Assembly (NCBI GenBank): GCA_963826115.1
Contig: CAWGVS010000005.1
Location: forward strand, 2,061,137 to 2,125,136
DNA length: 64,000 nucleotides
Reading direction: 5' to 3'
Source: an uncultured Candidatus Rokubacteria bacterium
GTDB lineage: Bacteria; Methylomirabilota; Methylomirabilia; Rokubacteriales; DASRDR01
The notes under the pieces are model-generated. The model was given only the letters and a program-made list of their open reading frames with translations. It did no database searches and had not been told where the DNA came from. A program made the translations under genes and the position numbers. Shown here piece after piece: positions 8,048 to 59,263 of the stretch; the stretch's first letter is position 1; every line of letters begins with the position of its first letter.

Positions 8048-10477
8048 CTACCCCTTCCTCCGCGGCACCGCGAGGGCGCCCGGGGCGAATCCCAGGGCCG
8101 ACATGAGAGGCGCCAGCGCCTCCCGATCGCCCGGGGATCCGTCGCGCCACAGACGGGCGACGACGTTCTGGGCCTCCCAGAGATCCGGGGGGGCCTCGAG
8201 CCCAGCCCCGAGCGCCAGGAGCGCGAGCCCATCGGTGACGGCCGTGGCCGTGGCAGCAGCCCGGAGCGCCTCGAGCACGCGCCCGAGGGCCGACTGGATC
8301 GACGGCACGACCTGCTCGGCGGTCAGCTCCAAGGAGATTCCCAGCGACCGCGTCTCGGCGACGAGCTCGCGAAGTCTTTGCGCGGCTTGGGTCACGGGAC
8401 CGCCGGCGGCGAGCACGGCGAGCTCCTCCCTCGCCGCCCGAGCCAGAAGGCGACGGGCCACGTCCGCGAGAGACGGCGGGATGGGGCCCTCCACCAGGCG
8501 AAGCTCGGCCAGGAGCCGGCGGCTGCCGGCGTCGATCCACTCCCCCGCACCCTCCGGGGCCGCCAGGGCACGCTCGGAGAGACGGGCCAGAAGACGGCGG
8601 CGCTCGTCGGGAAAAACGTCATCGGCGCCGTATGACCGGCCGCCGAAGTGCCGGTCGAGCGCGGCAGGCAGGTCCCCCTGCCCTCGGCCCGAGAACTCCC
8701 GCAAGAGCGCGTCCCGAGCGAGCGCGAGCGCCTCCCCCTCCGATCCCGTTCGCACACGGCAGTGGACGTGGCCGTCATGGGCGTGCAGCACGGCCAAGTC
8801 CGCCTCCTCGCACTCGGTCGTGAGGCGCGCGGTCACGCGCACCCGGCCGACCGCGAGCGAAGCCTCGCCCGCGGCCACGCGGGACCACCGGAGCCGCTCG
8901 ACCCGAAACGCGTGGACGTCGGCCGGGTCTCCGTAGCCCTCTGACGGTCCCGCGATCGCGTAGTGGGCGGCCACGCGCGCGAGATCGGTCACGGCGGGTA
9001 ACACGTGGCGCCGCCACACGACGGCGCCGTCCTGCAGCTCGGGAACGTTCGATGGAGCGACCGCCAGACGCCGGACCAGCTCCGCCTCGAGCCCGGCGTC
9101 GCCGCCGAGCGCATTCGCCAGCTGCAGCACGCGCGCCGCGTACCGGAGCACCTGGACCGTCTCGATTCCCGAGATCTCGTCGAAGAACCAGCCGCACGAC
9201 GCGTACATGAGCAGGCGGTGGCGCTGGAGCTCGAGACACCGGAGCGCCTGGACGCGGCCCGCCGCGTCCAGCGGGCGGAGCGCGTGGCGCTCGAGGAAGG
9301 CCTCCACGGACGCGGGGCTCCGGTCGAGGACCACCTCTACGTATGCGTCACGCGCGGCCCAGGGATCCTTGAGCAGCGCGCCCGCTCGCGCCTCGTAGAG
9401 CGCGTCCACGGAGTCGCGCAGCCAGTCGAGCGCCTCGCGGAGGGGCGCCCGCCAGCGCTGCGTCCAGCCGTGATGGCGGCCGGCCCGGCATCCGCAATCG
9501 CCCCGCCACCGCTCGACGCCGTGCGCACAGCTCCACGAGGACCCCTCGACCACCCGCGCCTCCAGCGTGGGGGGATGAGCCGCGAGGAAGGCAGCGTGGT
9601 TGGTCAGGCTCGCGGCGCCGCTCGCCTCGATCCGGGCGGACGCCGCTGCCAGCGCCATCTCGCCGAAGCGATGGTGGTGGCCGTAGCTCTCGCCGTCGGT
9701 GGCGACCTGAACGAGCTGAGGGTGCGCGCCCTCGTCGAAACCGGCCAGGAGGCGCGTCGCCATCGCCTCACCTGATCGGAGAAGTCCGTCGAAGGCGACC
9801 GCGTGGGAGATCGCCCCGTCGTAGAAGAAGAGCGCGAGTGCCCGGCCCTGCCCTCCTTCCCAGCGGTACGCCCGTCGCGGATCGAGCGCCAGGGCTCCGG
9901 GCCGCCACTCCCCATCTGGCTCCCGCACGCCGGCGGCCTGCCCCGGCGCGAGGAGCGTGAAGCGCACCCCCTCCTCGGCCAGCACGTCGAGGGTCTCGCG
10001 ATCCGCGGCGGTCTCGGGAAGCCACATCCCGGCCGCCTCGCGACCGAAGCGGTGCCGGAAGTCGGCGAGACCCCATCGCACCTGAGTGACCTTGTCGCGC
10101 CGGCTGCAGAGCGGAAGGATGGCGTGCCCATATGCCTGAGCGATCGCGTTCCCGTGTCCGCGGTCCCCCCGGCTCACCCGGTCCGCTTCCAGGATCGCGC
10201 GGTAGACGTCGGGACGCTCCCGCTCGAGCCAGGCCATGAGCGTGGGGCCGACGTCGAAGGCGAGCGCGGCGAAGTTGTCGACGACGTCCAGGATCCGGTT
10301 CTGCGCGTCCACGCGGCGCGCGGCCGTGTTGGGCGCGTAGCACTCCGCGGCGACGCGCGCGTTCCAGTCGTGATACGGGGCGGCGGAGTCCTGGGTCTCG
10401 ACGCGCTCGAGCCAGGGGCTCTCGCGGGGAGGCTGGTAGAAGTGACCGTGGATCGCGACGAACCGCGGGCGACTCAT
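8048..10477 (-). CDS. Glycoside hydrolase family 57 / DUF3536 protein
   Basis: MSRPRFVAIHGHFYQPPRE start at 10477; GMWLPET (nucleophile Glu); ATDGESYGHH; SWSCAHGVERW; MYASCGWFFD. Confidence 0.9.
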   Translation of the reverse strand: MSRPRFVAIHGHFYQPPRESPWLERVETQDSAAPYHDWNARVAAECYAPNTAARRVDAQNRILDVVDNFAALAFDVGPTLMAWLERERPDVYRAILEADRVSRGDRGHGNAIAQAYGHAILPLCSRRDKVTQVRWGLADFRHRFGREAAGMWLPETAADRETLDVLAEEGVRFTLLAPGQAAGVREPDGEWRPGALALDPRRAYRWEGGQGRALALFFYDGAISHAVAFDGLLRSGEAMATRLLAGFDEGAHPQLVQVATDGESYGHHHRFGEMALAAASARIEASGAASLTNHAAFLAAHPPTLEARVVEGSSWSCAHGVERWRGDCGCRAGRHHGWTQRWRAPLREALDWLRDSVDALYEARAGALLKDPWAARDAYVEVVLDRSPASVEAFLERHALRPLDAAGRVQALRCLELQRHRLLMYASCGWFFDEISGIETVQVLRYAARVLQLANALGGDAGLEAELVRRLAVAPSNVPELQDGAVVWRRHVLPAVTDLARVAAHYAIAGPSEGYGDPADVHAFRVERLRWSRVAAGEASLAVGRVRVTARLTTECEEADLAVLHAHDGHVHCRVRTGSEGEALALARDALLREFSGRGQGDLPAALDRHFGGRSYGADDVFPDERRRLLARLSERALAAPEGAGEWIDAGSRRLLAELRLVEGPIPPSLADVARRLLARAAREELAVLAAGGPVTQAAQRLRELVAETRSLGISLELTAEQVVPSIQSALGRVLEALRAAATATAVTDGLALLALGAGLEAPPDLWEAQNVVARLWRDGSPGDREALAPLMSALGFAPGALAVPRRKG

Positions 10478-10616
10478 GGAGGCAGGAGACGCTCGGCCGC
10501 CCGGGCGCGTCGCGCGCGCCTCGGGACGGCGAGGTGACTCGCGTACGACCATGCCCAGCCGCTGGCCAGGACCCGTGCAGATCCGGTCAGGGCGATCGAA
10601 GACGAGGTCGCGGAAG

Positions 10617-10952
10617 CTACCAGCGTGGGGGCCGGCCCGAGCCTCCGCGGCCACCGCCGCCCATGCCCGACCCGCCGCGGCCACCGCCACCGCCACCGCC
10701 CGCCCCCTGCGGGTTGGCGAGCTCGACCTTGATCGTGCGACCGTCGAGTCGCTGGCCGTTGAGCATGCTGACGGCCTTCTGGGCTTCCTCGTTGGTCGCC
10801 ATCTCGACGAAGCCGAACCCTCGCGACTGCCCAGAGTATCGGTCGGTGATGACCGTCGCCGACTCCACCGTCCCGCACTGGACGAAATGCTCGCGCAGGG
10901 CCTCGGAGGTAGTCGAGTACGAGAGACCGCCCACATACAGCTTGACCGCCAT
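10617..10952 (-). CDS. RRM (RNP-1) RNA-binding protein with Gly/Arg-rich tail
   Basis: KLYVGGL (RNP2), RGFGFVEM (RNP1), GGGGGGGRGG tail; AAAGGAGG RBS. Confidence 0.93.
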   Translation of the reverse strand: MAVKLYVGGLSYSTTSEALREHFVQCGTVESATVITDRYSGQSRGFGFVEMATNEEAQKAVSMLNGQRLDGRTIKVELANPQGAGGGGGGGRGGSGMGGGGRGGSGRPPRW

Positions 10953-11331
10953 GGGACCTCCTTTGGTGACGGGTCGGAGCGTTCTTAGCCCCGAAGCATA
11001 GCACGGTCACCGGGTCCCGGGTCGAGGGCTCCGGCCACCGGTCATCCCACTCCCGAAACCTCGTGTGGCCGGTCTCGGTTCCCGTCGCCAGGGCGCTCAG
11101 GCGAGTGGTCACGGCGGGGTCGACCGCCCGGCTTCCTCGCGGAGCTTCCATCCGCGACGCTGAGCGTGGGCGGGGGGCCGCCCGGCGCGAGGCTTGTCCG
11201 GCGGGCGTGGAATTCATCCGGGCGGGTCTAGGAAGCCGGACGAGGTCCACGGCCGAGGCGAGCCGGTCCGGGTCGTCGCTCGGGCCGCCGCCGCCGAGCC
11301 CCCGCGCGCCTGCGCAGGAGCAAGACGGCAC

Positions 11332-12705
11332 CTAGCCGAACGGGAGGAGCAGCTTCGTCAGGGTCGCGCGAACCTCGTCGGGCGTCGTGACCCCGACGGC
11401 CCGCACGATCCCCTTCTTGTCGACCACGACGTTGTGCGGCACGCCGCGGAGGCCGAGCCGGGCGATGTACTCCCCGGTCGCATCGATGAGCACGGTGCCC
11501 TGGATGTTGTGGATCTTGCAAAAATGGAGGGCCTCACGCCGTGGATCAACGTGCTCCCACACGTTGACCATGACGATTTCGAGCCCGAACTTCGCGGCCC
11601 GACGACGCACTTCCTCGAGTAGCGGAGCCTCCGCGTTGCAGGGTCCTCACCAGCTGGCGAAGAAGTTCAGGATGTACTTCTTGCCTCGATACTCCTCCGA
11701 CGTGCGCGGTTTCCCGTCCGCCATGTCCGGCAAGCTGAACGACGGGAGGGGCTTTCCGATCAGAGGATGCTGCCAGTCCTTCGGGAGCTCGGCCGGCTCA
11801 CCGTCCAGCCGATCCTGGAAGATGCTCACCGTGCTGGTGGCCGCGTCCGAGACGTACACGGTTCCCGACTGCTGGTCGACAGCGAGGTCCCCGGGAGCCT
11901 TGCCGACCGGAACCCGCGCCCACTCCCGGCCCGTCTGACGGTCGATCACGCTCACCCGCCCCGTCCCCCGGTTGGCCGCGTAGATGCGATCACCCGCGCG
12001 CCCCAGACCCATGCCTACGGGGGCGCGCTCCACGGTGAGGGTGTCCACGACCTCCTGCTTGTCCAGGTCCACCACCGCCACCGTGCTGACCAGCGAGTTC
12101 GCGACGTAGGCGCGCCCCCGCGGCGCGTCGATGGCGATCTTGCAGGGCGCGTAGTCGAGCTTGATCTCCCCGATGGGCTCGTTCGACTGACCGTCGATGA
12201 CGGTCATCGACGCGTCCCCGAAGTTGACGCAGTAGACGCGGTCCCGCACCGGGTCGGAGCCGAGGCTGCCCGCCGCGGTCTTGGCCGGCACGGTCGCGAT
12301 GACCTCCAGCCGGTCGGCGTCGATGACGCTCACGGTGTTGTCCGCCGTGTTCCCGACATAGACCTTGCGACGCTCCGGATAGAAGCCCGCTCCGGCGGGG
12401 TAGTGCTGGACGGGGATCTGCGTGATGGTCTTGAGGGTCGCCGTGTCGATGACGGACACGACGTCCGAGCGCGCGTCGGTCGTGAACACGTGGCCACCCT
12501 GCTTGTCGTGCACGAGCCCGATCGGCTCGCGGCCCACCGGCACCTGGGCCACGACCTCGCGCGAATCGAGGTCGAACACGGCGACGCTGTCGCTCCGCGC
12601 GCACGCCACGTACCCTCGCCGACCCTCGCCATCGACGGCGATGCCCTCGGGCCCGTAGCCAACTGGAATCGCGCCTGGCGCGGGGAAGCTCTCCGACGTG
12701 CCCAT
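11332..12705 (-). CDS. YVTN/YncE beta-propeller fused to TlpA-like redoxin, predicted selenoprotein (UxxC)
   Basis: ORFs 11647..12705 and 11332..11610 are in the same frame and separated only by TGA at 11649-11647. Readthrough gives LNFFASW-U-GPC-NAEAPLL, matching thioredoxin WCGPC. SECIS-like hairpin follows. Confidence 0.85.
11622..11634 (-). promoter_or_regulatory. Candidate bacterial SECIS hairpin GCGGA-GGC-TCCGC
   Basis: Stem starts 12 nt after the in-frame UGA; G-containing apical loop. Confidence 0.6.
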
Positions 12706-12846
12706 GTGCTCTCCTCGAGACCAAACTCGCTCGTGCTAGGTGAGGGCCGGCGTTCCCGGCTCTGAGCCCGGCACACTATGCCCGATCACCCTTGGCGTCG
12801 CAAGTGATTCATGCCTCGTCGAGGGCTCGGCGCAAGGGGGCCGCCG

Positions 12847-13891
12847 TCACCCCTGCCCCTGCCCGCCCGCAGGATCCGCGAGCGAAAGCCGACGTCGACG
12901 GGCCAGCCCCCGGAGGCGCGCCGTCGCCTCGACCAGTCCGCCGGGAAGGAGGAGCACGATCCCGATGAACAGCACCCCGAAGATGAGCAGGTGCAAGTCG
13001 ACCCAGCGCAGCGCCAGATACTCCCGCAGGAAGACGAAGAGGGCCGCGCCGAGGACCGGCCCGTGCACCGTGCCCACGCCCCCGATGAAGGTGATCAGCA
13101 CGGCATCGAAGGTCCACGTCGGGCTGAACGCGTGCTGCGGGTAATAGCTGATGTGATAGAAGGCGAACAGCCCTCCGGCGAGCCCGGCGAGACCCGTGGA
13201 CACGGCCACGGCGGCGAGCTTGACGCGGAAGGCCCCCACACCGGACGCCTCGGCGGCCGTCTCGTCCTCCCGGATGGCCTCCATGGCGAGCCCGAGCCGC
13301 GAGGCGGCCAGCCACGTCACGGCCAGCGTTGTCCCGACCGCGAGCGCGGCCGCGGCGTAGTAGCGGTCCGTGAGCCGATAGGCCGCGATGGCCTTCGCCG
13401 GACAGCGTGGAGATCTCGGGGAGCAGGTTGCCGACCGCGATCCGGAGCACCTCGGCGAGCGCCAGGGTCCCGATCGCGAAGTAAGCGCCGCGCAGCCGGA
13501 ACGCGGCGAGCCCGACGGCCACGCCCGCCACGGTCGCGAGCGCGGCCCCCGCCGCCATCGCGACGGGAACCGCCACGCCACCCGCCCACAGATGGCGCGT
13601 CGCCAGAGCGCCGAGCCCGAAGAAGGCTGCGTGGCCGAGGTTCACCTGGCCCGCCTGCCCGCCCATCACGTTCCAGCTCTGAGCCAAGGCCACCAGCAGA
13701 AAGAACACGACCCCCAGGTTGAGCCAGTCCTCCCGGGTGACGGCGAGAGGCGCGAGCCCGAGGAGAGCCAGGGCCACCGCCGTCCCCGCGGCGCGGCCGA
13801 CCCCGACGCGACGCGCGCCCGCGCTCCACCGGGCCATTCGGGCCCGGCGTGAGAAATCGATCGGACCGCCGGCGGCCTTGGCGGGGGTCAC
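12847..13891 (-). CDS. Branched-chain amino acid ABC permease LivM-like (frameshift ~13400)
   Basis: AQSWNVMGGQAGQVNLGHAAFFGLGA, RLRGAYFAIGTL, AIREDETAAEASG, IGGVGTVHGPVLGA across two frames. Confidence 0.85.
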
Positions 13892-14761
13892 GCGCGCCCG
13901 AACAGGCCCTGTGGACGCGCCACCAGGACGCAGAAGAAGAGGAGCAGGCCCACCACCTCGCGGTACGCGCCTCCGAACACCACCGCGCTCAACGCCTCGG
14001 CACACCCGAGCACGATCCCGCCCACGAAGGTGCCGAATGCGGACCCGAGTCCGGCCAGCACGATCACGATCAGCGCCTTGAGGGTCCACTCGAGCCCGAT
14101 GGACGGGCTGATCGAATAACCCAGGCTCACGAGCGTCCCGGCCGCCCCGGCGAGGGCGGTGCCGATGGCAAACGCGAGCCCGTAGGCGCGGCGCACATCG
14201 ATCCCGACCAGGCTCGCCGCTTCCCAGTCCTCGGCCGTCGCGCGGATCGCCTGGCCCCACCGAGCCCGGCGAAGGAAGGCGTGCAGGAGAGTGAGTCAGC
14301 CCGAGGGCGACGAGGAGACTCAGGAGGCGTCCCAGCGGAACCACGACGCCCCCGACCGCGAGGGTGCGGCCTCGGTAGGCCGTCGTGATCGAGCGCTCGT
14401 CCGCGGTGAACAGCCGGACGGCCAGCGCCTGGAGGGTGAGGGCGAGCCCGAAGCCGACGAGGAGCGAGTTCTTGATCCGCGTCTCCTCGCCGTGGCGCAC
14501 GATGAAGCGGAACACGCCGCCGTAGAGGAGAGCGCCCAGCGCCCCCGCCATCGGGATGACGAGCAGCAGCGCCACGAATGGATCGAGCCCGAGGAGCGCG
14601 ACCAGCCAGAAGGCGCCGTACCCGCCCAGCATGATCAGCTCGCCGTGGGCCACGTTGAGGACCCGCAGGACGCCGAACACGAGCGAGAGCCCTGCGGCCG
14701 CCAGGCCGTAGAGCCCTCCGAGCAGGATGCCCAGGATCAGTTGCTGCGCGAGCGCCGTCAC
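13888..14761 (-). CDS. Branched-chain amino acid ABC permease LivH-like (frameshift ~14290)
   Basis: GLYGLAAAGLSLVFGVLRVLNVAHGE; second frame gives LKALIVIVLAGLGS...RPQGLFG. Confidence 0.85.
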
Positions 14762-14774
14762 GCCCGCCTCGCCG

Positions 14775-15494
14775 TCATGACTCGACCGCCAGCGGCCCGA
14801 GGTAGGCTCGCCGGACCTCGGGATCGGCCAGGACCTCCGCGCCCCGGCCCTGCCCCACCACCCGGCCGTGCTCGAGCAGATATGCGCGGTGCGCGAGGTC
14901 GAGCGCAGCCCGGACGTTCTGCTCGACGAGAAAGACCGCCACCCCTGCCCGGTTGATCTCCGCGAGCACGGCGAGCAGCGATTCCACCACACGGGGCGCG
15001 AGCCCCAGCGAGGGCTCGTCCAGCATCAGGAGACTCGGCTGAGTCATGAGTGCCCGCCCGATGGCGGCCATCTGCTGCTCGCCGCCCGACAGAGCGCCCG
15101 CCGGCTGCCGGCGTCGCTCGGCCAGACGCGGGAAGATCGCGTAGACGCGGTCGAGGGTCGCCCGGCGCCCGGCACGCGCCCGGGAACTGAAGGCTCCGAG
15201 CGAGAGGTTCTCCTCGACCGTCATGTGGCCGAAGAGCCGGCGGCCCTCGGGTACCATCGCCACGCCGCGCTCCACCACCCGGTGCGGCGGGAGCCCGCCG
15301 AGATCCTGGCCCTGCCAGAGGACGCGTCCCGCGCGCGGCCGCGTCAGGCCCGCGATGCAGCGAAGGAGTGTGGTCTTCCCCGCTCCGTTGGATCCGACCA
15401 GCGCCACGATCTCGTCGGAGCCGATCTGGACGCCGACTCCGACGAGGGCACGAAGCTCCCCGTAGGCCGCGTGGAGATCCCGCACCTCAAGCAT
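14775..15494 (-). CDS. ABC ATPase LivF-like
   Basis: GSNGAGKTT, LSGGEQQM, LDEPSLGLAP, VEQN. Confidence 0.93.
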   Translation of the reverse strand: MLEVRDLHAAYGELRALVGVGVQIGSDEIVALVGSNGAGKTTLLRCIAGLTRPRAGRVLWQGQDLGGLPPHRVVERGVAMVPEGRRLFGHMTVEENLSLGAFSSRARAGRRATLDRVYAIFPRLAERRRQPAGALSGGEQQMAAIGRALMTQPSLLMLDEPSLGLAPRVVESLLAVLAEINRAGVAVFLVEQNVRAALDLAHRAYLLEHGRVVGQGRGAEVLADPEVRRAYLGPLAVES

Positions 15495-16254
15495 CCGTCC
15501 TGCTCCCGGTTCTCTTCCCGCTTCCCCCGCGACCTAGATAGGCGTCGACGACAGCCGGATCGACCGCGACCGTGGCCGGCGCCCCGTCGGCGATCTTCTC
15601 GCCGGCGCTCAGGACCACGATCCGGTCGGAGAGGTCGAGCAGGGCCCACACGATGTGCTCCACGATCAGGAGGGTCGTCCCCTCACCGCGGACACGCCGG
15701 ATGACGTCCATGGCGTCGCCGGTCTCGGCAGGGGTCAAGCCGGCCATGAACTCGTCGAGCAGGAGAAGGTCTGCCCCGGTGGCAAGCGCGCGGGCCAGCT
15801 CGAGCCGCCGCCGCTCGATGAGGCTCAGACGGGTGGCCATGAGGTGTGCCTTCCCGCCGAGTCCAACCAGGGCCAGGAGGTTCGCGGCCGCGCGCTCCGG
15901 GTCCCGCCTCTTGCCCCGCAGGCGGCCGTGCAGAAGACCGACGAGGACGTTGTCGATCGCCGTGAGGCCGAGGAACGGCCGCACGTGCTGGAAGGTCCGC
16001 GCGACACCGTCAGCGCAGCGCTGATGCGGCGGCAGCCGCGTGACGTCCCGGCCGCGCAGGCGGATGCGGCCGCCGTCGGGACGGAACATCCCTGCGATCA
16101 GATTGAAGAGCGTCGTCTTGCCGGAGCCGTTCGGCCCCATGATGCCGACGACGCTGCCGGCCGAGACGTCGAGGGTCACGCCCCGAACCGCCTGCACGCC
16201 CGCGAAGGCCTTCGAGACGCCTTCGAGGGCGAGCAGGGGCTCGGCGCGCGTCAC
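15487..16254 (-). CDS. ABC ATPase LivG-like
   Basis: GPNGSGKTT, ARTFQ, LLLDE, VEH, AYLG. Confidence 0.92.
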   Translation of the reverse strand: MTRAEPLLALEGVSKAFAGVQAVRGVTLDVSAGSVVGIMGPNGSGKTTLFNLIAGMFRPDGGRIRLRGRDVTRLPPHQRCADGVARTFQHVRPFLGLTAIDNVLVGLLHGRLRGKRRDPERAAANLLALVGLGGKAHLMATRLSLIERRRLELARALATGADLLLLDEFMAGLTPAETGDAMDVIRRVRGEGTTLLIVEHIVWALLDLSDRIVVLSAGEKIADGAPATVAVDPAVVDAYLGRGGSGKRTGSRTDA

Positions 16255-16279
16255 GCGAGGTTCAGGCGCCGGCCACGGC

Positions 16280-17482
16280 TCACCGCTTGGAATAGGCCGG
16301 TGCCGGGTAGGCCAGCGGCTTGGTGGCGAACTCCTTCGGCCAGACCATCTCCTGCTGGCCGTCGAGCCACTGAAGGAAGGCTCCCTGCACGACGCCCGTG
16401 CCGTCGGCGCGGAACTTCACCGGTCCGACCACGGTCATCATGTCCGTGGCGGCGATGGCGTCGCGCACCTTCTCACGGTCCAGGGCACCGGCCTTCGTGA
16501 GCGCCGCCGTCAGGATCTGCACGCACGCGTACGCCGGGCCGGTGATCGGGTCGGAAGGCCGCCCGATCTTCTTCACGTGCGCGGCGTTCAGCTCGGTCAC
16601 GCCCGGATACTTGAACGCGTGATGCCAGCCCGGGGCGAACACGACGTAGTCACCGTCCTTGCCGAGGTTCTTCGACCAGACGGGCGCGTCGGGCGCGCGG
16701 ATCATGAGCGCCAGCTTGGGATTGAAGTCGAGCTCGTGCATCTGCTTGACGATCGCCATGCCGTCGGGCGGGGTCGGGAGGGCGAACACCGCGTCGGCCT
16801 GAGCCGTCTTGGCCTTCAGGATCAGGTCAGAGTAGTCCTTCGCGCCTGGGGCATACTCACCCTGGACGACCACTTCGTACCCGGCGGCCTTCCCCGTCTC
16901 CACCCACGCCGCGGCCATCTCCCGGCCCCAGTCGGTCTTCTCGAGGAAGAGCGCGACCTTCTTGGGACGCTCGGCGGCCGGAATCGAGGTCAGCATCGGC
17001 ACCATCTGCTGGCCGATGTCCGGCGACTTCCAGAACGGGGAGAAGAGGTATCGGAACCCCTGCTGGTGGATCTTGTGGAGGGCGAAGGCCACGCCAAGAT
17101 ACGGGATCTTGTTCTTCTCGGCCGCAGACGCCGCCGCCGCGTGGAGATCCGAGCCGAACGTGCCCAGGTACGCCACGACACCCTGCGTGGCCAGGCTCTC
17201 GTAGCGGGCCACGGTCTTCGTCGCGTCGGACTCGTCGTCCAGGAGCACGAGCTCGAGCGGCATCTTCGCCCCGCCCACCGTCACGCCCCCGGCCCGGTTC
17301 ACGTCCTCGATTGCGAGCTCGTAGCCGACCCGCACCTGTGAGCCCGGAGCCGCGTACCGCCCCGTCAGCGGCACGACCGCTCCGACCTTGATCGTCTGGG
17401 CGGAAACCGCCCCCGGCCAGGCGAGCCAGCCGGTCGCCAACACCGTCACGAGCCCGCTCAGGATCCATCCTCGTCGCGTCAT
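16280..17482 (-). CDS. Branched-chain amino acid ABC substrate-binding protein
   Basis: Signal peptide MTRRGWILSGL...AQ; IKVGAVVPLTG; LDDESD. Confidence 0.9.
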   Translation of the reverse strand: MTRRGWILSGLVTVLATGWLAWPGAVSAQTIKVGAVVPLTGRYAAPGSQVRVGYELAIEDVNRAGGVTVGGAKMPLELVLLDDESDATKTVARYESLATQGVVAYLGTFGSDLHAAAASAAEKNKIPYLGVAFALHKIHQQGFRYLFSPFWKSPDIGQQMVPMLTSIPAAERPKKVALFLEKTDWGREMAAAWVETGKAAGYEVVVQGEYAPGAKDYSDLILKAKTAQADAVFALPTPPDGMAIVKQMHELDFNPKLALMIRAPDAPVWSKNLGKDGDYVVFAPGWHHAFKYPGVTELNAAHVKKIGRPSDPITGPAYACVQILTAALTKAGALDREKVRDAIAATDMMTVVGPVKFRADGTGVVQGAFLQWLDGQQEMVWPKEFATKPLAYPAPAYSKR

Positions 17483-17758
17483 TGCGCCCCTCTCTTTCGG
17501 TGAGAGCTCCGGGCCAGACGGCGCCGCGCCGAGCGCCCGTGCGTCGGGCGCACCGACCCGGCGCTCGGCGCCGGCTCGTCGTGCCGTGCCTCGTAGAAGG
17601 TGACGTTCAAGAAGCTCGGAGGCGTCGGGGCAACAAGAAGCCGGGCGACCCCGGGCCGACGTCCACCGGTGTGTCTCGCGCCCATCTCCCCGATCAGGGC
17701 CGCCCACCGATCGCGCCGGCGCCCGGACCGCTTGACAGATTCCATCGAATGGTGTGTG

Positions 17759-53243: not shown

Positions 53244-56135
53244 ATGAGTACCGCCCTCGAAGCCCCAGCCCGCCCGCGCGCCGTGACGCAAGCGCGCCGA
53301 GCCGTCCGGCTCTCACATGGCGGCATCTGGGTCGCAGCGGCGGGCGGCCTCCTCGCCGCCGTCTTCCTGGCGATCCGGTATCGGCTGGCGCTCACGCCCA
53401 CTCTCGCCGAGACCTACTACGACGAGGCGCTCACGGGGCTCATGGGCCTCGCAATCCTCCACGGTGCTCCGCAGGTCTTCTACTGGGGGGAGCCGTACGG
53501 GGGCGCGATCGGCGACGCCTATCCGGCAGCGCTCGGGTTCTGGCTCTTCGGCCCGTCAGCCCTCGTCTTGCGGATGGCGTCGGCGGTCATCGCCGTCCTG
53601 TGGGCCTGGTCCCTATGGTTCACGGCCCGCCGAGCTGGCGCGGGGCCGTTCGCCTTCCTGGCGGGTCTCCTGGTTGCGGTGCCCCCCATCTTTCTCAGCT
53701 TTGCTCAGCTGTCGACCCACGGAGAGAGCTCCGCGCTGGCCTTCGGCACGCTGGCCCTGGCCAGCGCCGCGTACCTGATCGATGCGCGCGCGATTCGGGC
53801 ACGGGCCGCGGCCTGGGCGATCCTCGGCATCGCCTCGGGTCTCAGCTGGTGGTCGAGCCAGATCGGGACGATGCTGCTCCTCGCTGCCGCCGTCGTGCTC
53901 ACCGTCGCGCGGCCCCAGGTCCTCCGGAGCCCCGGGCCCTATGCGGCTCTCGCGCTCTTCTTCATCGTGAGCTGGCCCTTCTGGCTGTGGAACGCGCACC
54001 ACGACTGGGCCACGTTTCGCCACCTCGCGACCTGGGGCGGACCGCTGCCGCCGTGGCGCAGTCGGTTCAAGATCCTGGGCGAGACGCTCGTCATGAGCCT
54101 GCGCGACTACTTCTGGGACGGAAAGGTGGTGCGGCTGCCGCCATGGGCTCGGCTCCTGAGCTGGGTCGCGCTGTTGGGCGTATACGTGCCGGGTCTGCTC
54201 GTCGCGGTGGGTCGGGCGGTCACGTGGACCCAGCGGATCCGACGGCGCGAGCGGCCGTGGCGGGACGCCCTGGATCTCGTCGTGGTGGCGTTCTGGGCAA
54301 CCGTGGCGGCCCACCTCTTGACCTGGTTCGGCACGTCCACCGTGCTCCGCTACGCGATGACCTTCCAGGGAACCCTGCCGGTGCTCTGCGCGATGGCGCT
54401 GGCACGCCTGGCCACCGTCGGAGGCACCCCCGTCGCAGGTCTCCTCGCGGCGGCGCTCCTCAGCTTCAACCTGGCCACTCACGTCGCCTTTGTGAGGGAC
54501 GGGAGAGCCGAGCCCTGGCGACCCGTCGACGCGGCCATTGGACGGCTCGAGGCGCTCGGAATCCACGCGTGCTACGCGGACGGACGGGTCTCCCAGGTCC
54601 TCACGTTCGAGTCCAACGAGCGGGTCCGCTGCTCCGACTACGTCGGATACCGGGACTATGCCCTCCTCGACGCCGTCGACCGGGTCGACGATCCCTCCGC
54701 CGTGGCGATCGTCACGCATCGCACCCTGCAGCACCCTCACCCCCAGGTCATGGCCAAGGCGCTCGACCTCGCCGGCGCTCGATACGAGCGAGAGAATGTC
54801 GGTGACTACACGATCTTCCACGGCTTCGCGGCCCCGGGCCCCGTGAGGCCAATCGTCCCGTCGGGATGGCTCGCGCGTGCGTCGTCTCGGACCGAAGCCG
54901 CCGGCCTGGCGCTCGACCGCCGCGTGTGGACCCGCTGGACGGCCCCCCAGAAGAACGGCCAGTGGTTCCAGCTGGACCTTGGACAACCTCATCCCGTCGC
55001 GCAGCTGACGCTTGCCGCGGGTCCCTGGCCGAGCGACGCGCCGAAGGGACTCCGTGTGGAGACCTCCGTCGACGGCGCGACCTGGAGGACCGTGGCATCG
55101 GCCCGGGAGGTGCTCGCCGGGCTCCACTGGTGGAAGGGTCATCCCCGGCTCGACGACAGCGGCAGGGTCATCGTCCGCATGGAGCCACGACTCACTCGTT
55201 ACGTGCGCCTCACCCAGACCGAGAAGGGCGACCCCGGCACGGTGTGGAGCATCGCCGAGCTGTTCGTCTACGAGCCGGCCACGACGCCGTGGGAGCCTCC
55301 CGCCGAGGCCGCCGAGGCCGCGACCGCCGCCGAGCGCCAGCTGGACCACTGGATGGACGACCCCCAGGGACCGAACCCGATCCGCGCCCCCGTGACATAC
55401 GAGCACCGACGGGCGCAGGTCCCCTGGAGCGCGGTGTTCGCCGGCACGAGTCGGGCCCTCGCCCTCGCGCCCGAGTGGGAAGGCGCGCACCTCCTCTACG
55501 GCAGGGCCCTCACGCGGGCGGGCTGGTCGGAGACGTTCGATCTCGACGTCGAGCGAGCTGCGGCCGACCAGGCATGGTCCGAGGTCGTCCGCTGGGCCGA
55601 GGAGGCGGAGACCGTCCCGGAGGGGCTGTGGCGCCACGGTCGCCTGGAGCACTGGGCCGAGGCGCTCGACAAGCTCGGCCGAGGCGACGCCGCCGCGGCG
55701 ATCAGGCTGCGATCAGCCCCGGCACCCGATCGCCCCACCAGAGTCCGATTCGGAGAGGCCCTCGATCTGGTCGGTGTGGACCTGCCTCCCGAGGTCCGAC
55801 CGGGTGAAACCGTGACGGTGCGCTACCACTGGCGGCTGGCGCAATCTCTCCGACAGGACTACTGGGTCTTTCTCCACATCCGGGGCCTGAAGGACGCCCG
55901 CAACCACGATCAGCCGATCGGGGCCGGGAACTTCGGCACCTCGCACTGGTCTCCGGGAGAGGAGGTCCGGCAGAGCGTGACGTTTCGCGTGCCGGACGAC
56001 ACCCCGCCCGGCCGCTACCCACTCCACGCGGGTGTCTGGCTACCCTGGACCGGCAAGCAGCTCAGGCCGAGCGCGACCGAGCTCTCCATCGTCCACCGGG
56101 CCGTGGTGGTCGGGAGCCTGACCGTCACCCGCTGA
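53244..56135 (+). CDS. GT-C (ArnT/PMT-like) membrane glycosyltransferase with discoidin (F5/8 type C) and C-terminal Ig-like domains
   Basis: YYDEA after TM1; many TMs; ALDRRVWTRW...QWFQLDLG...SVDGATW...RYVRLTQ...WSIAEL; YWVFLH...GRYPLHAGVW. Confidence 0.78.
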   Translation: MSTALEAPARPRAVTQARRAVRLSHGGIWVAAAGGLLAAVFLAIRYRLALTPTLAETYYDEALTGLMGLAILHGAPQVFYWGEPYGGAIGDAYPAALGFWLFGPSALVLRMASAVIAVLWAWSLWFTARRAGAGPFAFLAGLLVAVPPIFLSFAQLSTHGESSALAFGTLALASAAYLIDARAIRARAAAWAILGIASGLSWWSSQIGTMLLLAAAVVLTVARPQVLRSPGPYAALALFFIVSWPFWLWNAHHDWATFRHLATWGGPLPPWRSRFKILGETLVMSLRDYFWDGKVVRLPPWARLLSWVALLGVYVPGLLVAVGRAVTWTQRIRRRERPWRDALDLVVVAFWATVAAHLLTWFGTSTVLRYAMTFQGTLPVLCAMALARLATVGGTPVAGLLAAALLSFNLATHVAFVRDGRAEPWRPVDAAIGRLEALGIHACYADGRVSQVLTFESNERVRCSDYVGYRDYALLDAVDRVDDPSAVAIVTHRTLQHPHPQVMAKALDLAGARYERENVGDYTIFHGFAAPGPVRPIVPSGWLARASSRTEAAGLALDRRVWTRWTAPQKNGQWFQLDLGQPHPVAQLTLAAGPWPSDAPKGLRVETSVDGATWRTVASAREVLAGLHWWKGHPRLDDSGRVIVRMEPRLTRYVRLTQTEKGDPGTVWSIAELFVYEPATTPWEPPAEAAEAATAAERQLDHWMDDPQGPNPIRAPVTYEHRRAQVPWSAVFAGTSRALALAPEWEGAHLLYGRALTRAGWSETFDLDVERAAADQAWSEVVRWAEEAETVPEGLWRHGRLEHWAEALDKLGRGDAAAAIRLRSAPAPDRPTRVRFGEALDLVGVDLPPEVRPGETVTVRYHWRLAQSLRQDYWVFLHIRGLKDARNHDQPIGAGNFGTSHWSPGEEVRQSVTFRVPDDTPPGRYPLHAGVWLPWTGKQLRPSATELSIVHRAVVVGSLTVTR

Positions 56136-56237
56136 ATCCGAGCGCGACGGGGGCGCCACGCGGTGCGATGCCCGTCGCGACGTGGCTTCGGGAAGAGTCC
56201 GGATTCTGGCCGAGCGGCGCCTGCCGTCCACCCCGCA

Positions 56238-57815
56238 TCAGAGATCGTTGCCCGAGTACGACTGGTTGAACGACTTGTTGCAGAGCGGGAAGTCGGGAAC
56301 GATGTTCTTCAGCAGCGCGTACGACAGCGGACGCCAGTTCAGGAACGAGGGGTCAAAGATCTTGACGCGCTCGAGCCGGCCGCTCCCGTCGGTCATCAGC
56401 CAGTGAACGATCCGCCCGCGCCATCCCTCCACTAGCGCGAAGGCCGGCTCGAAGGCCGGCAATGGGCCCGGAGCCGACTCCAGCGGTCCCACCGGCAGCC
56501 CCCCGACCGCTTGCTCGATCAGCTTCACCGATTCCCTCGCCTCCTGGACTCGGATCAGCGTGCGCGCCTTCACGTCGCCGGATTCGAGCACGGGCACTCC
56601 GAACGACAGCTCCCCGTAGGCCGCGAACGGATGGTCGCGCCGCGCGTCGACGTCCAGGCCGGACGCGCGCGCCACGAAGCCGAGGACTCCGTGGTCACGC
56701 GCGATCCGGGTCGTCAGGCGGCCAGTACCTTCGAGTCGATCGGCCACCAGCGTGTTGCCGAGGCTGATCTCGACGATCTCGTCGAAGTCCGCCAGGGCCC
56801 CGCGCACCTCGGAGACCACGTCCAGCCCACCCGGCAGGTCCGTCCGGACACCGCCGGGATGGAGAGTTCCCCGCAGCAGCCGGTGACCCGTCAGGCGCTT
56901 GTTCAGGCGCATGAGCCGCTCGCGGATCCGGAAGCAGTGCGAGTGAGCCACGCCGAAGCCCGTGTCGTTGGCGATCATCCCGAAGTCTCCGACGTGGTTG
57001 TAGAGGCGCTCGAGCTCGAGCAGCAGCACGCGCAGGTACCGCGCCCGAGGCGGCACGACGGTGCGGCTCAGCGCCTCCACCGCCTGACAGTAGGCCAGCG
57101 CGTGCCCGACGCTCGTGTCGCCTGACACGCGCTCAGCCAGCTCCACCCCATCCTCCGGCGCACGTCCTTCGAAGAGCTTCTCGGTCCCCTTGTGCGTGAA
57201 GTACAGCCGGGACTTCATATCGATGATCGTCTCGCCCACGACGCTGAAGCGGAAGTGGCCGGGCTCGATGATGCCCGCGTGCACCGGTCCCACCGGGATC
57301 TCGTACACTCCCTCGCCGCCGACCTGCCTGAACGGAAAGGCCTGGCCGTCATCGTGGAAATCCCGGGGGACGGCGTCCTTCCGGAGGGGGAAGAAGTCCT
57401 CCGGCCAGAACGCGTGCCGCACCAGCGGCCGGGGATCGGGATGCCCCCGAGCCCCAATGCCGAAAAGATCGAAGATCTCACGCTCGAACCGTGACGCCGG
57501 ATAGTGGAAGGTGGCTAGCGACGGGATCTCGGGTCGCTCGGCGGACACGGCCACCGTCACGTGGACGAACCAGTTCCCGGCACCCTGGCCGAACAGGTAG
57601 TGGACCTCGAACCCTCCGCGATTCGACCGGCAGTCGGCTCCTACCATCAGGATGAGGTCGGCCCCGAAGCTCGAGTGCAGCCACCTCGCGAGCGCCGGCA
57701 CCTCCTCGGCCGCGATCGTGCAGCGAAGCTCCCGAGGCCCGTGAAGGCGCACCCCGGCGACGCGGCCCTGAAACTGCCGACTGAGCGACGTAACCAGGCT
57801 TTCGAAGGCCGTCAT
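56238..57815 (-). CDS. HyfG/NuoCD-like large subunit lacking NiFe-binding CxxC motifs (EhrL-like)
   Basis: ERE..DLFG, VGPVHAGIIEPGHF, HKGTEK; L1 site reads ERVSGDT and L2 site reads PLCNKSFNQSY. Confidence 0.88.
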   Translation of the reverse strand: MTAFESLVTSLSRQFQGRVAGVRLHGPRELRCTIAAEEVPALARWLHSSFGADLILMVGADCRSNRGGFEVHYLFGQGAGNWFVHVTVAVSAERPEIPSLATFHYPASRFEREIFDLFGIGARGHPDPRPLVRHAFWPEDFFPLRKDAVPRDFHDDGQAFPFRQVGGEGVYEIPVGPVHAGIIEPGHFRFSVVGETIIDMKSRLYFTHKGTEKLFEGRAPEDGVELAERVSGDTSVGHALAYCQAVEALSRTVVPPRARYLRVLLLELERLYNHVGDFGMIANDTGFGVAHSHCFRIRERLMRLNKRLTGHRLLRGTLHPGGVRTDLPGGLDVVSEVRGALADFDEIVEISLGNTLVADRLEGTGRLTTRIARDHGVLGFVARASGLDVDARRDHPFAAYGELSFGVPVLESGDVKARTLIRVQEARESVKLIEQAVGGLPVGPLESAPGPLPAFEPAFALVEGWRGRIVHWLMTDGSGRLERVKIFDPSFLNWRPLSYALLKNIVPDFPLCNKSFNQSYSGNDL

Positions 57816-59263
57816 GGCCCCACGATCTCGACGATCTGGGCAAGGAGGCGCGCCAGCGGCGCCGGGACGAACAGACCCAGGACGACCAGCACCGCCATGC
57901 ACAGAACGAGGGGCGCCAGCCGCCAGCGATCCTCCTTCCCGAGGAGCACGCCGGCGGGCGGCGCTCCGTACAGCATCCGGTTCGCGTGGGTCACGAACCC
58001 GACACAGGCCACGGTCAAGAGCGCCAGCACGATCCCCATGAGCCAGGGTCGCCCGACCGCAAAGCCGGCCCGCACCAGCGCGAACTCCGAGACGAACAGG
58101 CCGAACGGCGGCAGGCCCACCAACGCCAGGGCTCCGGCCAGGAACAGCCAGCCCGTTCCCGGCATCGACTGGAGCAGGCCGGTCACGCGCGCGATGTCAG
58201 CCGTTCCGTATCGGCGGAGGACTCGCCCGGCCAGCAGGAACATCGTGGACTTCGCCAGCGTGTGGTTGAGGAGATGCAGCATCGCCGCGATCGTCCCCGG
58301 CGGCCCCAGCGTCAGCCCTACGCACACGAGGCCCATGTGCTCGATGCTCGAGTAGGCGAGCATCCGCTTGTAGTTCCGCTGCATCACGAGGCTGAATGCC
58401 GCGATTGCGAGTGACAGGACGCCCAAGACGGCGAGAAACCGGTTCGGAAAGGCGGCGCCGACGGCAATGCTCACCACCGCCTTCCAGCGGACGATCGCGT
58501 AGAGCGCCACCGCCAGCAGCACGCCCGACATCATGGCCGAGAGGGGCGCGGGCGCCTCGGCGTGGGCGTCGGGAAGCCACGTGTGCATCGGCGCGAGCCC
58601 GGCCTTCGTCCCGTAACCCACCAGGATGAACACGAACGCCAGCTCCATGACTTCGGGGTGGAGCGCGGGCGCGGCGGCTCTCAGCACGGTCCAGTTCAGA
58701 ACCGCCTCCTGCGGGTCGGCCAGCCTCACGAAGTCGAAATACGCGAGCACGGTGCCGGCGAAGGCAAGGGCGATGCCCACCGACCCCAGCAGCACGTACT
58801 TCCAGGACGCTTCGACCGACGCCTTGGTGACGTCGAGCGCGATCAGCATGGCGGAGGTGATGGTGGTGGCCTCGATCGCCACCCACATCAGACCGACGTT
58901 ATTGGTCGTGACCGCACCGAGCATGGTGAAGCCGAACAGGTTGACGAAGATGTGGAAGCGACGGGTCCGCCGGGGCTCGTCGCTCCGATCGAACCCCGGG
59001 CCGAGCCACGTCGCTAGCACCGTGACCACCGAGACGCAAACCGCGAGCAGCGCCGACAGGGCATCCGCCCGGAGGACATCCTGCCACCCCGCCACCACGA
59101 CCTTGTCCGCCAGGACCTGCCGCCCCAGCGCGAGGGCCGCACCGAGCGAGACGAGGGACAGGCCTGCGTTCGTCCAGCCGACGGCCCGCCGGAAGGGCAC
59201 GGTGACCAGGGCGAGCAGCGCCGCCAGCAACGGCGGGCCGAGCAGGAATCCGAAGGTGCGCAC
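57812..59263 (-). CDS. hyfF: Hydrogenase-4 component F-like antiporter subunit
   Basis: WVAIEATT, EASWKY, GYGTKAGLAPMHTWLPDAH, KRMLAYSSIEH. Confidence 0.88.
   Translation of the reverse strand: MRTFGFLLGPPLLAALLALVTVPFRRAVGWTNAGLSLVSLGAALALGRQVLADKVVVAGWQDVLRADALSALLAVCVSVVTVLATWLGPGFDRSDEPRRTRRFHIFVNLFGFTMLGAVTTNNVGLMWVAIEATTITSAMLIALDVTKASVEASWKYVLLGSVGIALAFAGTVLAYFDFVRLADPQEAVLNWTVLRAAAPALHPEVMELAFVFILVGYGTKAGLAPMHTWLPDAHAEAPAPLSAMMSGVLLAVALYAIVRWKAVVSIAVGAAFPNRFLAVLGVLSLAIAAFSLVMQRNYKRMLAYSSIEHMGLVCVGLTLGPPGTIAAMLHLLNHTLAKSTMFLLAGRVLRRYGTADIARVTGLLQSMPGTGWLFLAGALALVGLPPFGLFVSEFALVRAGFAVGRPWLMGIVLALLTVACVGFVTHANRMLYGAPPAGVLLGKEDRWRLAPLVLCMAVLVVLGLFVPAPLARLLAQIVEIVGP

Follow-up and report, generated by a model that had tools for sequence, protein, structure and literature searches.

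The window analyzed here is a 64,000-nt stretch of contig CAWGVS010000005.1 (positions 2,061,137 to 2,125,136) from an uncultured Candidatus Rokubacteria bacterium (assembly GCA_963826115.1), and coordinates below are positions within it. On its minus strand lies a gene interrupted by an apparent internal stop that is very probably a selenocysteine (Sec, U) codon, in a genuine Sec-encoding gene that joins a β-propeller to a redoxin domain. The strand reads TTC GCC AGC TGG TGA GGA CCC TGC (F-A-S-W-U-G-P-C), with the TGA at 11649–11647. With this codon read as U, a single 457-residue frame extends from the ATG at 12705 to a TAG at 11334–11332, and the TGA is the sole interruption of the frame between 12705 and 11335. 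The Sec is residue 353 and is followed by 104 codons, among them LGLRGVPHNVVVDKKGIVR. The features of the gene are as follows.

12711–12716, minus strand: Shine-Dalgarno-like GAGGAG, 5 nt before the ATG, read directly from the sequence.
11335–12705, minus strand: complete coding sequence of 457 codons, the Sec codon among them, open with TGA read as U and followed by the stop TAG at 11334–11332; tblastn matches in relatives extend over residues 1–457.
11815–12675, minus strand: seven-bladed YVTN β-propeller, residues 11–297 (TIGR02276, E-value 6.7e-48; AlphaFold2, 28 strands, predicted local distance difference test (pLDDT) mostly 95–98).
12601–12603, minus strand: propeller Cys C35 at the end of strand B of blade 1 (Cys in 56/59 sequences).
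12229–12231, minus strand: propeller Cys C159 in strand B of blade 4 (58/59).
12142–12144, minus strand: invariant propeller Cys C188 at the start of strand A of blade 5 (59/59).
11758–11814, minus strand: ordered, conserved linker, residues 298–316 (pLDDT 89–94; D298, L300, P304, H313 and P314 nearly invariant).
11347–11757, minus strand: TlpA/ResA-like thioredoxin-fold (redoxin) domain, residues 317–453, spanning the TGA (Pfam; ResA, PDB code 4nmu, E-value 7.9e-20; structural model).
11647–11649, minus strand: Sec codon UGA, residue 353 in W-U-G-P-C (TGA in relatives; WCGPC in Cys homologues).
11638–11640, minus strand: resolving Cys C356 of the UxxC motif (invariant, 59/59).
11622–11634, minus strand: putative apical hairpin of a selenocysteine insertion sequence (SECIS), GCGGA-GGC-UCCGC, 12 nt after the UGA (codon invariance, folding energy).
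11613–11642, minus strand: possible extended SECIS with a 3-bp lower stem (CCU/AGG) around the hairpin, seen on minimum free energy (MFE) folding of the 40 nt that follow the UGA.
11518–11520, minus strand: redoxin-domain Cys C396 in helix 388–399 (54/59).

Conventional translation (table 11) yields a 352-residue open reading frame (ORF) ending ...NFFASW and a separate 92-residue ORF, which starts at a GTG 12 codons past the TGA with GAGGAA immediately 5' of it. An in-frame TAG at 12738–12736, 11 codons 5' of the ATG, bars a longer N-terminus, and a Met at the aligned start is common to many close relatives in the full-length alignment. No promoter-like or terminator-like sites were found. The first-pass annotation, made from the letters of the window, had described the TGA within F-A-S-W-*-G-P-C, the 104 further codons and the total of 457 residues, as well as the propeller cysteines in YVAC (C35), YCVN (C159) and APCK (C188); all of these were found as described.

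An AlphaFold2 model built from an alignment of 59 full-length read-through sequences has a mean pLDDT of 94.2 and a predicted template modelling score (pTM) of 0.92. In this model, 28 strands over residues 11–297 form seven four-stranded blades, the last of which appears to be closed by strand 11–14. The YVTN repeat model TIGR02276 matches the same region with 160.4 bits (cut-off 27.85), which places it in that family. The redox domain is matched by Pfam Redoxin (PF08534, residues 317–443, E-value 1.1e-19, 71.1 bits, cut-off 26.6) and by Pfam AhpC-TSA (residues 316–436, E-value 1.2e-18, 67.7 bits, cut-off 26), and both matches cross the TGA; the AhpC-TSA match reflects the shared fold. The proposed fusion of a YVTN propeller to a TlpA/redoxin fold is borne out by these matches. 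G317, the first residue of the redoxin domain, is invariant. Within the modelled thioredoxin fold, strand 343–349 precedes the Sec and helix 354–373 begins right after U353, placing W-U-G-P-C at the start of helix α1, while G421, V422 and P423 of the conserved Pro loop are invariant, which assigns the domain to the TlpA-like/redoxin thioredoxin-fold superfamily (PF08534, cd02966). The high pTM together with the ordered, conserved linker argues for a fixed arrangement of the two domains.

More narrowly defined families do not include the protein. Scores fall below the cut-offs of the NCBIfam equivalogs DsbE (61.3 of 123 bits), ResA (60.4 of 170) and TlpA (42.5 of 230), of YncE (NF052280, 101.2 of 400) and the PQQ-associated propeller (TIGR03866, 126.8 of 287.3), and of the WAxxUGC_long selenoprotein (NF041054, 47.6 of 300), the motif here being W-U-G-P-C. 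Nor does the active site, N-F-F-A-S-W-U-G-P-C, contain the PxxxTxxC/U motif of peroxiredoxins proper. The closest solved redox domains by sequence are ResA, CcmG/DsbE and TlpA, and PDB entry 1l0q matches the propeller with an E-value of 6.2e-53. A Foldseek comparison with the PDB gave, among the 50 matches listed, propellers only (1l0q, Lp49, hydrazine synthase β, YncE), with query TM-scores of at most 0.60 and no chain covering both domains.

The TGA is conserved throughout the family. A genome scan with one genome per species recovered 23 loci at 64–96% protein identity, in records labelled Rokubacteria/Methylomirabilota and Armatimonadota (Chthonomonadaceae), and all 23 have TGA followed by G-P-C at the Sec column. 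The metagenome scan used a seed pattern that stops before the Sec codon and is therefore blind to Sec versus Cys; it returned 80 loci, including a distant clade at 43–51% identity, of which 77 have TGA at the column and none a Cys codon. In the other three the motif is missing: two matches end before the site (query residues 1–334 and 1–347) and one contig is apparently frameshifted. Over both scans, 100 of 103 related loci (43–96% protein identity) have TGA as the window does, with 0 Cys codons and 0 other stops. By comparison, the true terminal stops of the 93 complete loci vary (TAG 56, TAA 20, TGA 17). An internal codon that is always TGA, while the true stops vary, indicates that this TGA is not the ordinary stop of the gene. 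A further search of the phylum of the window found the gene in 16 of 251 genomes, all in one family (where 15 of the other 20 genomes carry it), and all 17 places covering the site have exactly one TGA.

Downstream of the TGA the frame remains open for 100–159 codons in every complete locus, and the tail contains 20 invariant columns past C356 in the full-length alignment. The median ratio of nonsynonymous to synonymous substitution rates (dN/dS) is 0.40 downstream of the TGA and 0.52 upstream (381 of 2485 pairs, with moderate dS). The redoxin domain also has Cys homologues, joined to other N-terminal parts, which read NFFASWCGPCNAEAP (P0270, P0271, P0272, P0274). Their WCGPC aligns at the site, so the Sec stands for the first, nucleophilic Cys, in agreement with the first-pass annotation.

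Two contigs cover the TGA: one of 151 nt from a soil metatranscriptome (2 differences) and an independent DNA contig of 1.2 kb from a sediment metagenome (78 differences), neither with a listed difference at the codon. A local sequencing error is thereby ruled out, and the contig from the RNA library is also a weak hint of transcription. The sequencing runs contained no more than 0.19 of the words, and the contigs speak to presence rather than to expression level. The first-pass annotation had named TGC or TGT in reads, and homologues ending at the codon, as results that would speak against Sec, and had suggested a tBLASTn comparison of the column in relatives. Neither TGC nor TGT was seen, the RNA-library and DNA contigs agree on TGA, no homologue ends at the codon, and the relatives show TGA without any Cys codon.

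The genome of the window (6.24 Mb, 12 contigs) carries the Sec machinery, and all four of selA, selB, selC and selD, which had also been put forward for checking, are present. The genes for SelB (348 bits), SelA (576 bits) and tRNA-Sec (76.9 bits; anticodon tca by ARAGORN) are clustered on contig 8, and all score over curated cut-offs. SelD, likewise over its cut-off, is encoded with one in-frame TGA read as H-G-A-G-U-A-C-K (contig 5, 561687–562604, L011), which we take to be the usual Sec/Cys site of SelD. This selD has a strong SECIS (−20.5 kcal/mol), in which 12 nt separate the UGA from an 8-bp stem (GGGCCAGA/UCUGGCCC) capped by a GGA loop. In five Armatimonadota genomes with the propeller–redoxin gene, selA is over the cut-off in all five and selB in four, with a partial match in the fifth.

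The hairpin GCGGA-GGC-TCCGC lies at 11634–11622 and starts exactly 12 nt past the TGA, as had been noted, in a layout like that of selD of the same genome (UGA, 12 nt, stem, GGA triloop). It folds with −5.6 kcal/mol alone, and the 40 nt after the UGA, with the hairpin and the 3-bp lower stem, fold with −9.6 kcal/mol. The bacterial SECIS model given in section 5 of a 2026 review (PMC13188914) specifies a loop of 3–9 nt with G in its first two positions, a stem of 4–16 bp, a distance of 16–37 nt from the UGA and an MFE of −7.5 kcal/mol or lower. The element here agrees with this model (3-nt GGC loop, 5-bp stem, 17 nt from UGA to loop, −9.6 kcal/mol in 40 nt). The weightier evidence comes from evolution. 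When the window and the 23 loci of the genome scan (24 sequences) are aligned by codon, 160 degenerate columns are invariant in amino acid; only four of these are also invariant in codon, and they are the consecutive GCG GAG GCT CCG that form the hairpin. Codon conservation at the four-fold degenerate A358 (GCG) and P361 (CCG) is 0.96 each, compared with 0.39 at G354 and 0.46 at P355 (71 sequences). A SECIS guiding SelB is a plausible but small element here; the earlier assignment of the hairpin as a bacterial SECIS is supported by its fit to the published model and by the synonymous-site constraint.

Taken overall, the evidence for recoding is robust, and the locus is almost certainly one gene for one 457-residue cytoplasmic selenoprotein, a propeller with a thiol-redox domain, that gene callers cut short; selenium would be inserted into the 457-residue protein at the position that the alignments indicate. 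It is highly improbable that the TGA is a real stop, which would leave a 352-residue propeller alone and a downstream redoxin frame that is either decaying or separately initiated. All 26 database gene calls examined do end ...FASW, and the GTG of the 92-residue ORF has GAGGAA just before it. Against this, the TGA splits the thioredoxin fold between strand 343–349 and helix 354–373, a 92-residue product would have no UxxC, and the GTG column is occupied in the distant clade by CTG (Leu) instead of a start codon. The tail is also open and conserved in the 93 complete loci with their varied true stops, and its dN/dS is not above that of the upstream part. Read-through of the UGA by other means, such as near-cognate insertion of Trp or Cys or a reassigned code, can be given hardly any weight either: nothing specific favors it, the use of TGA as terminal stop in 17 of 93 members shows that the code has not been reassigned, selA and selB have a dedicated tRNA-Sec gene beside them, and the SECIS-like hairpin resembles that of selD. 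Moreover, the site is the nucleophilic Cys of WCGPC, the classic Sec/Cys pair of UXXC selenoproteins in the account of PMC1088965.

Several observations nevertheless weigh against parts of the Sec reading and of the functional proposal made below. Shuffled versions of the 71 nt that follow the UGA are on the whole as stable as the native stretch or more so (z = +1.55; equal or better folding in 195 of 200), and the RNAalifold consensus of 82 sequences is weak (−1.84 kcal/mol) and is not the hairpin. The hairpin covaries hardly more than shuffles do (84.4% of cells paired, compared with 83.7%), only three hairpin cells have a double change, all A-U to C-G, and covariation support for the lower stem (CCU/AGG) was not found. 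The outer hairpin pair is missing in 14 of 81 sequences, and the distant clade, with GCGGAGGCGCCG(C/U/G), has a 4-bp stem and an AGGCG loop and has lost the A-U closing pair. Rfam gave 0 matches at the gathering score over the window, with two chance-level matches around the site. The invariant stretch contains GGAGG, so that part of the codon conservation could have another cause, e.g. anti-Shine-Dalgarno pairing. The Cys homologues, too, conserve A-E-A-P at the protein level, and a SECIS may therefore account for only part of the constraint on the stretch. The dN/dS values are high (0.4–0.5), probably from GC bias at third codon positions limiting dS, and are hence weakly discriminating. No conserved gene neighborhood suggesting a substrate was found among 62 flanking ORFs scanned at 21 loci.

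A protein search returned family gene calls at 42–69% identity that cover only ~75% of the query, and all 26 calls inspected end ...N[FV]FASW, i.e. at the Sec codon. A full-length Cys form of the fusion was not found in 5.8 billion protein clusters (word-indexed), in the region search, in an exhaustive HMMER search or in ~100 loci. The HMMER search, made with the full protein, was swamped by long multi-propeller proteins and returned only truncated family members (P0148, P0150). One longer sequence (P0260, 473 residues) was considered as a longer form and rejected, as its tail is of low complexity and resembles an out-of-frame translation. According to PMC13188914, nearly all selenoenzymes have more abundant Cys homologues, and the missing Cys form of the fusion is therefore unusual.

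The whole protein contains five Cys and one Sec, all of them conserved in the 59 sequences, with U353 and C356 each present in 59/59. Other invariant propeller residues are R37, E60, P61, D87, Y102, N161, F162 and R246, located at strand-B ends and strand-A starts. In β-propellers these positions generally line one face around the central channel, and judging from the topology, the invariant residues are likely to share one face. The first strand begins at residue 11 and an earlier start is barred, which leaves no space for a signal peptide; the protein should therefore be cytoplasmic, as the first-pass annotation had held. This claim rests on the start position, with the TAG barring an earlier one, and on the model, as Kyte-Doolittle scores of the N-terminus did not separate the family from signal-bearing controls.

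Members of the distant clade (43–51% identity; P0006–P0019) begin with an acidic extension, roughly 25–80 residues long. In most of them it contains one conserved Cys in the context G-P-x-C-x-V-[DP]; the protein of the window does not have it.

A working scheme can be proposed for the protein. SelB would probably bind the small hairpin 12 nt downstream and guide the reading of UGA 11649–11647 as Sec. Sec353 would then act as the attacking nucleophile in thiol-disulfide (selenol-sulfide) exchange on a disulfide (or sulfenate/persulfide) of a propeller-bound substrate, Cys356 would resolve the intermediate as a selenenylsulfide, and a cytoplasmic reductant would recycle the Sec/Cys center. The propeller, taken as ligand-binding, would supply substrate recognition, with conserved residues of the B-C and D-A loops, including C35, C159 and C188, as a binding or relay site. 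The sequence data show the recoding signature, the domain composition, the conservation and the lack of a signal peptide; selenium insertion itself is inferred, as are the substrate, the direction in which electrons flow and the meeting of the active site with the propeller face. The proposed cooperation of propeller and redox domain follows the example of NHLRC2 and SOQ1, where an NHL propeller works together with a thioredoxin-like domain. That the propeller serves as a platform presenting an external substrate to the Sec/Cys center is a moderately likely reading.

A different use of the same architecture, in which the Sec/Cys pair and the propeller cysteines form an internal switch, relay or metal(loid) site with no separate protein substrate, appears rather unlikely but deserves attention. 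Every Cys is conserved (C35 56/59, C159 58/59, C188 59/59, C396 54/59), C35 at the end of a strand B and C188 at the start of a strand A are expected from propeller topology to lie on the same face, and the high pTM and ordered linker suggest a fixed geometry. However, CxxC/UxxC thioredoxin folds normally act on external disulfides, and no metal-handling neighbors were found in the flanks scanned. A peroxiredoxin-like peroxidase with Sec as the peroxidatic residue would account for the AhpC-TSA match (E-value 1.2e-18, 67.7 bits, cut-off 26) and is improbable, as the best solved relatives are ResA, CcmG/DsbE and TlpA-type reductases and the active site is W-U-G-P-C, rather than the PxxxTxxU that the review PMC13188914 gives for Sec-peroxiredoxins.

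Selenoproteins with a UxxC motif are not new as a kind. Peroxiredoxin-like, thiol-disulfide isomerase-like, redoxin and TlpA forms have been predicted since 2005 (PMC1088965), and Table 1 of the 2026 review (PMC13188914) includes the same kinds. The TlpA-like, redoxin and peroxiredoxin-like UxxC selenoproteins predicted in these two sources share with the present protein the thioredoxin fold, Sec as the first residue of UxxC, a SECIS within the gene and CxxC homologues. They are described there by the redox domain alone, whereas here that domain is the C-terminal third after a ~300-residue YVTN propeller; the present protein additionally lacks a signal peptide, and the searches gave no Cys form of its full length. 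Neither the review (PMC13188914), whose catalogue does not include the propeller fusion, nor the BSepDB paper nor the deep-Sep paper contains the word 'propeller', and full-text literature searches returned nothing relevant that pairs YVTN with selenocysteine, or a bacterial selenoprotein with a β-propeller and a thioredoxin-like domain. This agrees with the remark in the first-pass annotation that the architecture was not recognized as characterized, though UxxC redoxin selenoproteins as a kind have long been known. The novelty is the propeller fusion, a new domain-fusion architecture on a kind of selenoprotein already known; in catalogues compiled by homology, these genes may already be present as generic redoxins.

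The nearest analogues in architecture are the lumenal domains of plant SOQ1 and human NHLRC2, in which a thioredoxin-like domain is stably joined to a β-propeller (PMC6107167; bioRxiv 10.1101/2021.03.16.435614). In both, the redox motif lies in the inter-domain cleft or interface with conserved residues on adjacent surfaces. The order of domains differs, the thioredoxin-like domain being first there and the propeller first here, as do the propellers (six-bladed NHL versus seven-bladed YVTN), the motifs (Cys there, CCINC in NHLRC2, versus Sec here) and the presence there only of an extra C-terminal domain. The present protein does not belong to the NHLRC2/SOQ1 family, and the likeness is one of architecture, retained as a functional analogy only; by that analogy, these proteins may be the best model for how the present protein works. 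B. subtilis ResA, Bradyrhizobium TlpA and CcmG/DsbE (4nmu, 1st9, 1jfu, 1kng) resemble the redoxin domain in sequence (E-values 8e-20 to 5e-11), in the position of CxxC and in the invariant G-V-P loop; in contrast to the present protein, which has neither signal peptide nor anchor, they are membrane-anchored, extracytoplasmic, Cys-containing, single-domain proteins. The YVTN propellers of 1l0q (Methanosarcina surface-layer protein), E. coli YncE (3vgz) and hydrazine synthase β (5c2v) share the seven-bladed fold, but have no redox domain, and the three conserved Cys belong to the alignment of the present family.

The flanking ORFs of the 21 loci encode, among others, a sigma factor, PEP mutase, Ada/AlkA, MutL, MFS and AMP-binding proteins. 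In the window, the gene has Liv-type permeases upstream and, on its downstream side, an RRM protein and a GH57 enzyme. The former is a glycine-rich RRM-type RNA-binding protein (10617–10952, minus strand) located 380 nt downstream of the gene and followed by the GH57/DUF3536 enzyme; such an enzyme is again found downstream in L026, the sole close relative with flanks scanned.

A second copy of the gene, also with the TGA, is found in the same genome (contig 11, 51788–53158, L131; 89% protein identity). It belongs to a block that is syntenic with window positions 9694–17658, at 83–84% DNA identity over ~7.6 kb, with a ~4.5-kb insertion downstream. This copy may come from a co-assembled related population rather than being a paralogue (estimated contamination 5.3%). 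Another copy, 90% identical to the protein of the window (L047), is in a metagenome-assembled genome (MAG) labelled Actinomycetota, which would reflect either mis-binning or recent transfer. A distant-clade protein (P0016) searched against 401 genomes of the phylum of that MAG gave 0 matches at an E-value of 1e-80 or lower.

Other in-frame TGAs of the window were also considered. A crude scan for UxxC/CxxU-like contexts gave 221 mostly spurious matches. The TGA at 56238–56240 was rejected as a Sec codon, since it appears to be the natural end of a NuoC/D-type subunit and no domain match lies beyond it, and two other read-through TGAs examined in the window had no Pfam match. The subunit is a fused NuoC/NuoD-type (group-4 [NiFe]-hydrogenase-like) large subunit (56043–58196, minus strand) that ends ...SYSGNDL, with the frame open past the TGA.

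The named gene calls of the family carry only the label 'YVTN family beta-propeller protein', so that both the redox domain and the selenium dependence are hidden in databases. The Sec reading corrects a systematic annotation error, all 26 examined calls halting at the Sec codon. With this family the bacterial selenoproteome gains a multidomain architecture, here in Methylomirabilota, the phylum of a MAG predicted to have a record 63 selenoprotein genes (as cited in PMC13188914). As a tentative extension, the family may be Sec-only, its three-Cys propeller rigidly docked to the Sec TlpA domain in a new cytoplasmic redox enzyme with its own substrate (e.g. a protein disulfide or persulfide, a chalcogen or a metalloid) that has been passed among soil Rokubacteria, Armatimonadota and probably Actinomycetota. 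A Sec-only family would lend itself to the question of when Sec is indispensable, and the protein would offer a compact bacterial counterpart to NHLRC2 and SOQ1 for studying the cooperation of a propeller with a thioredoxin fold.

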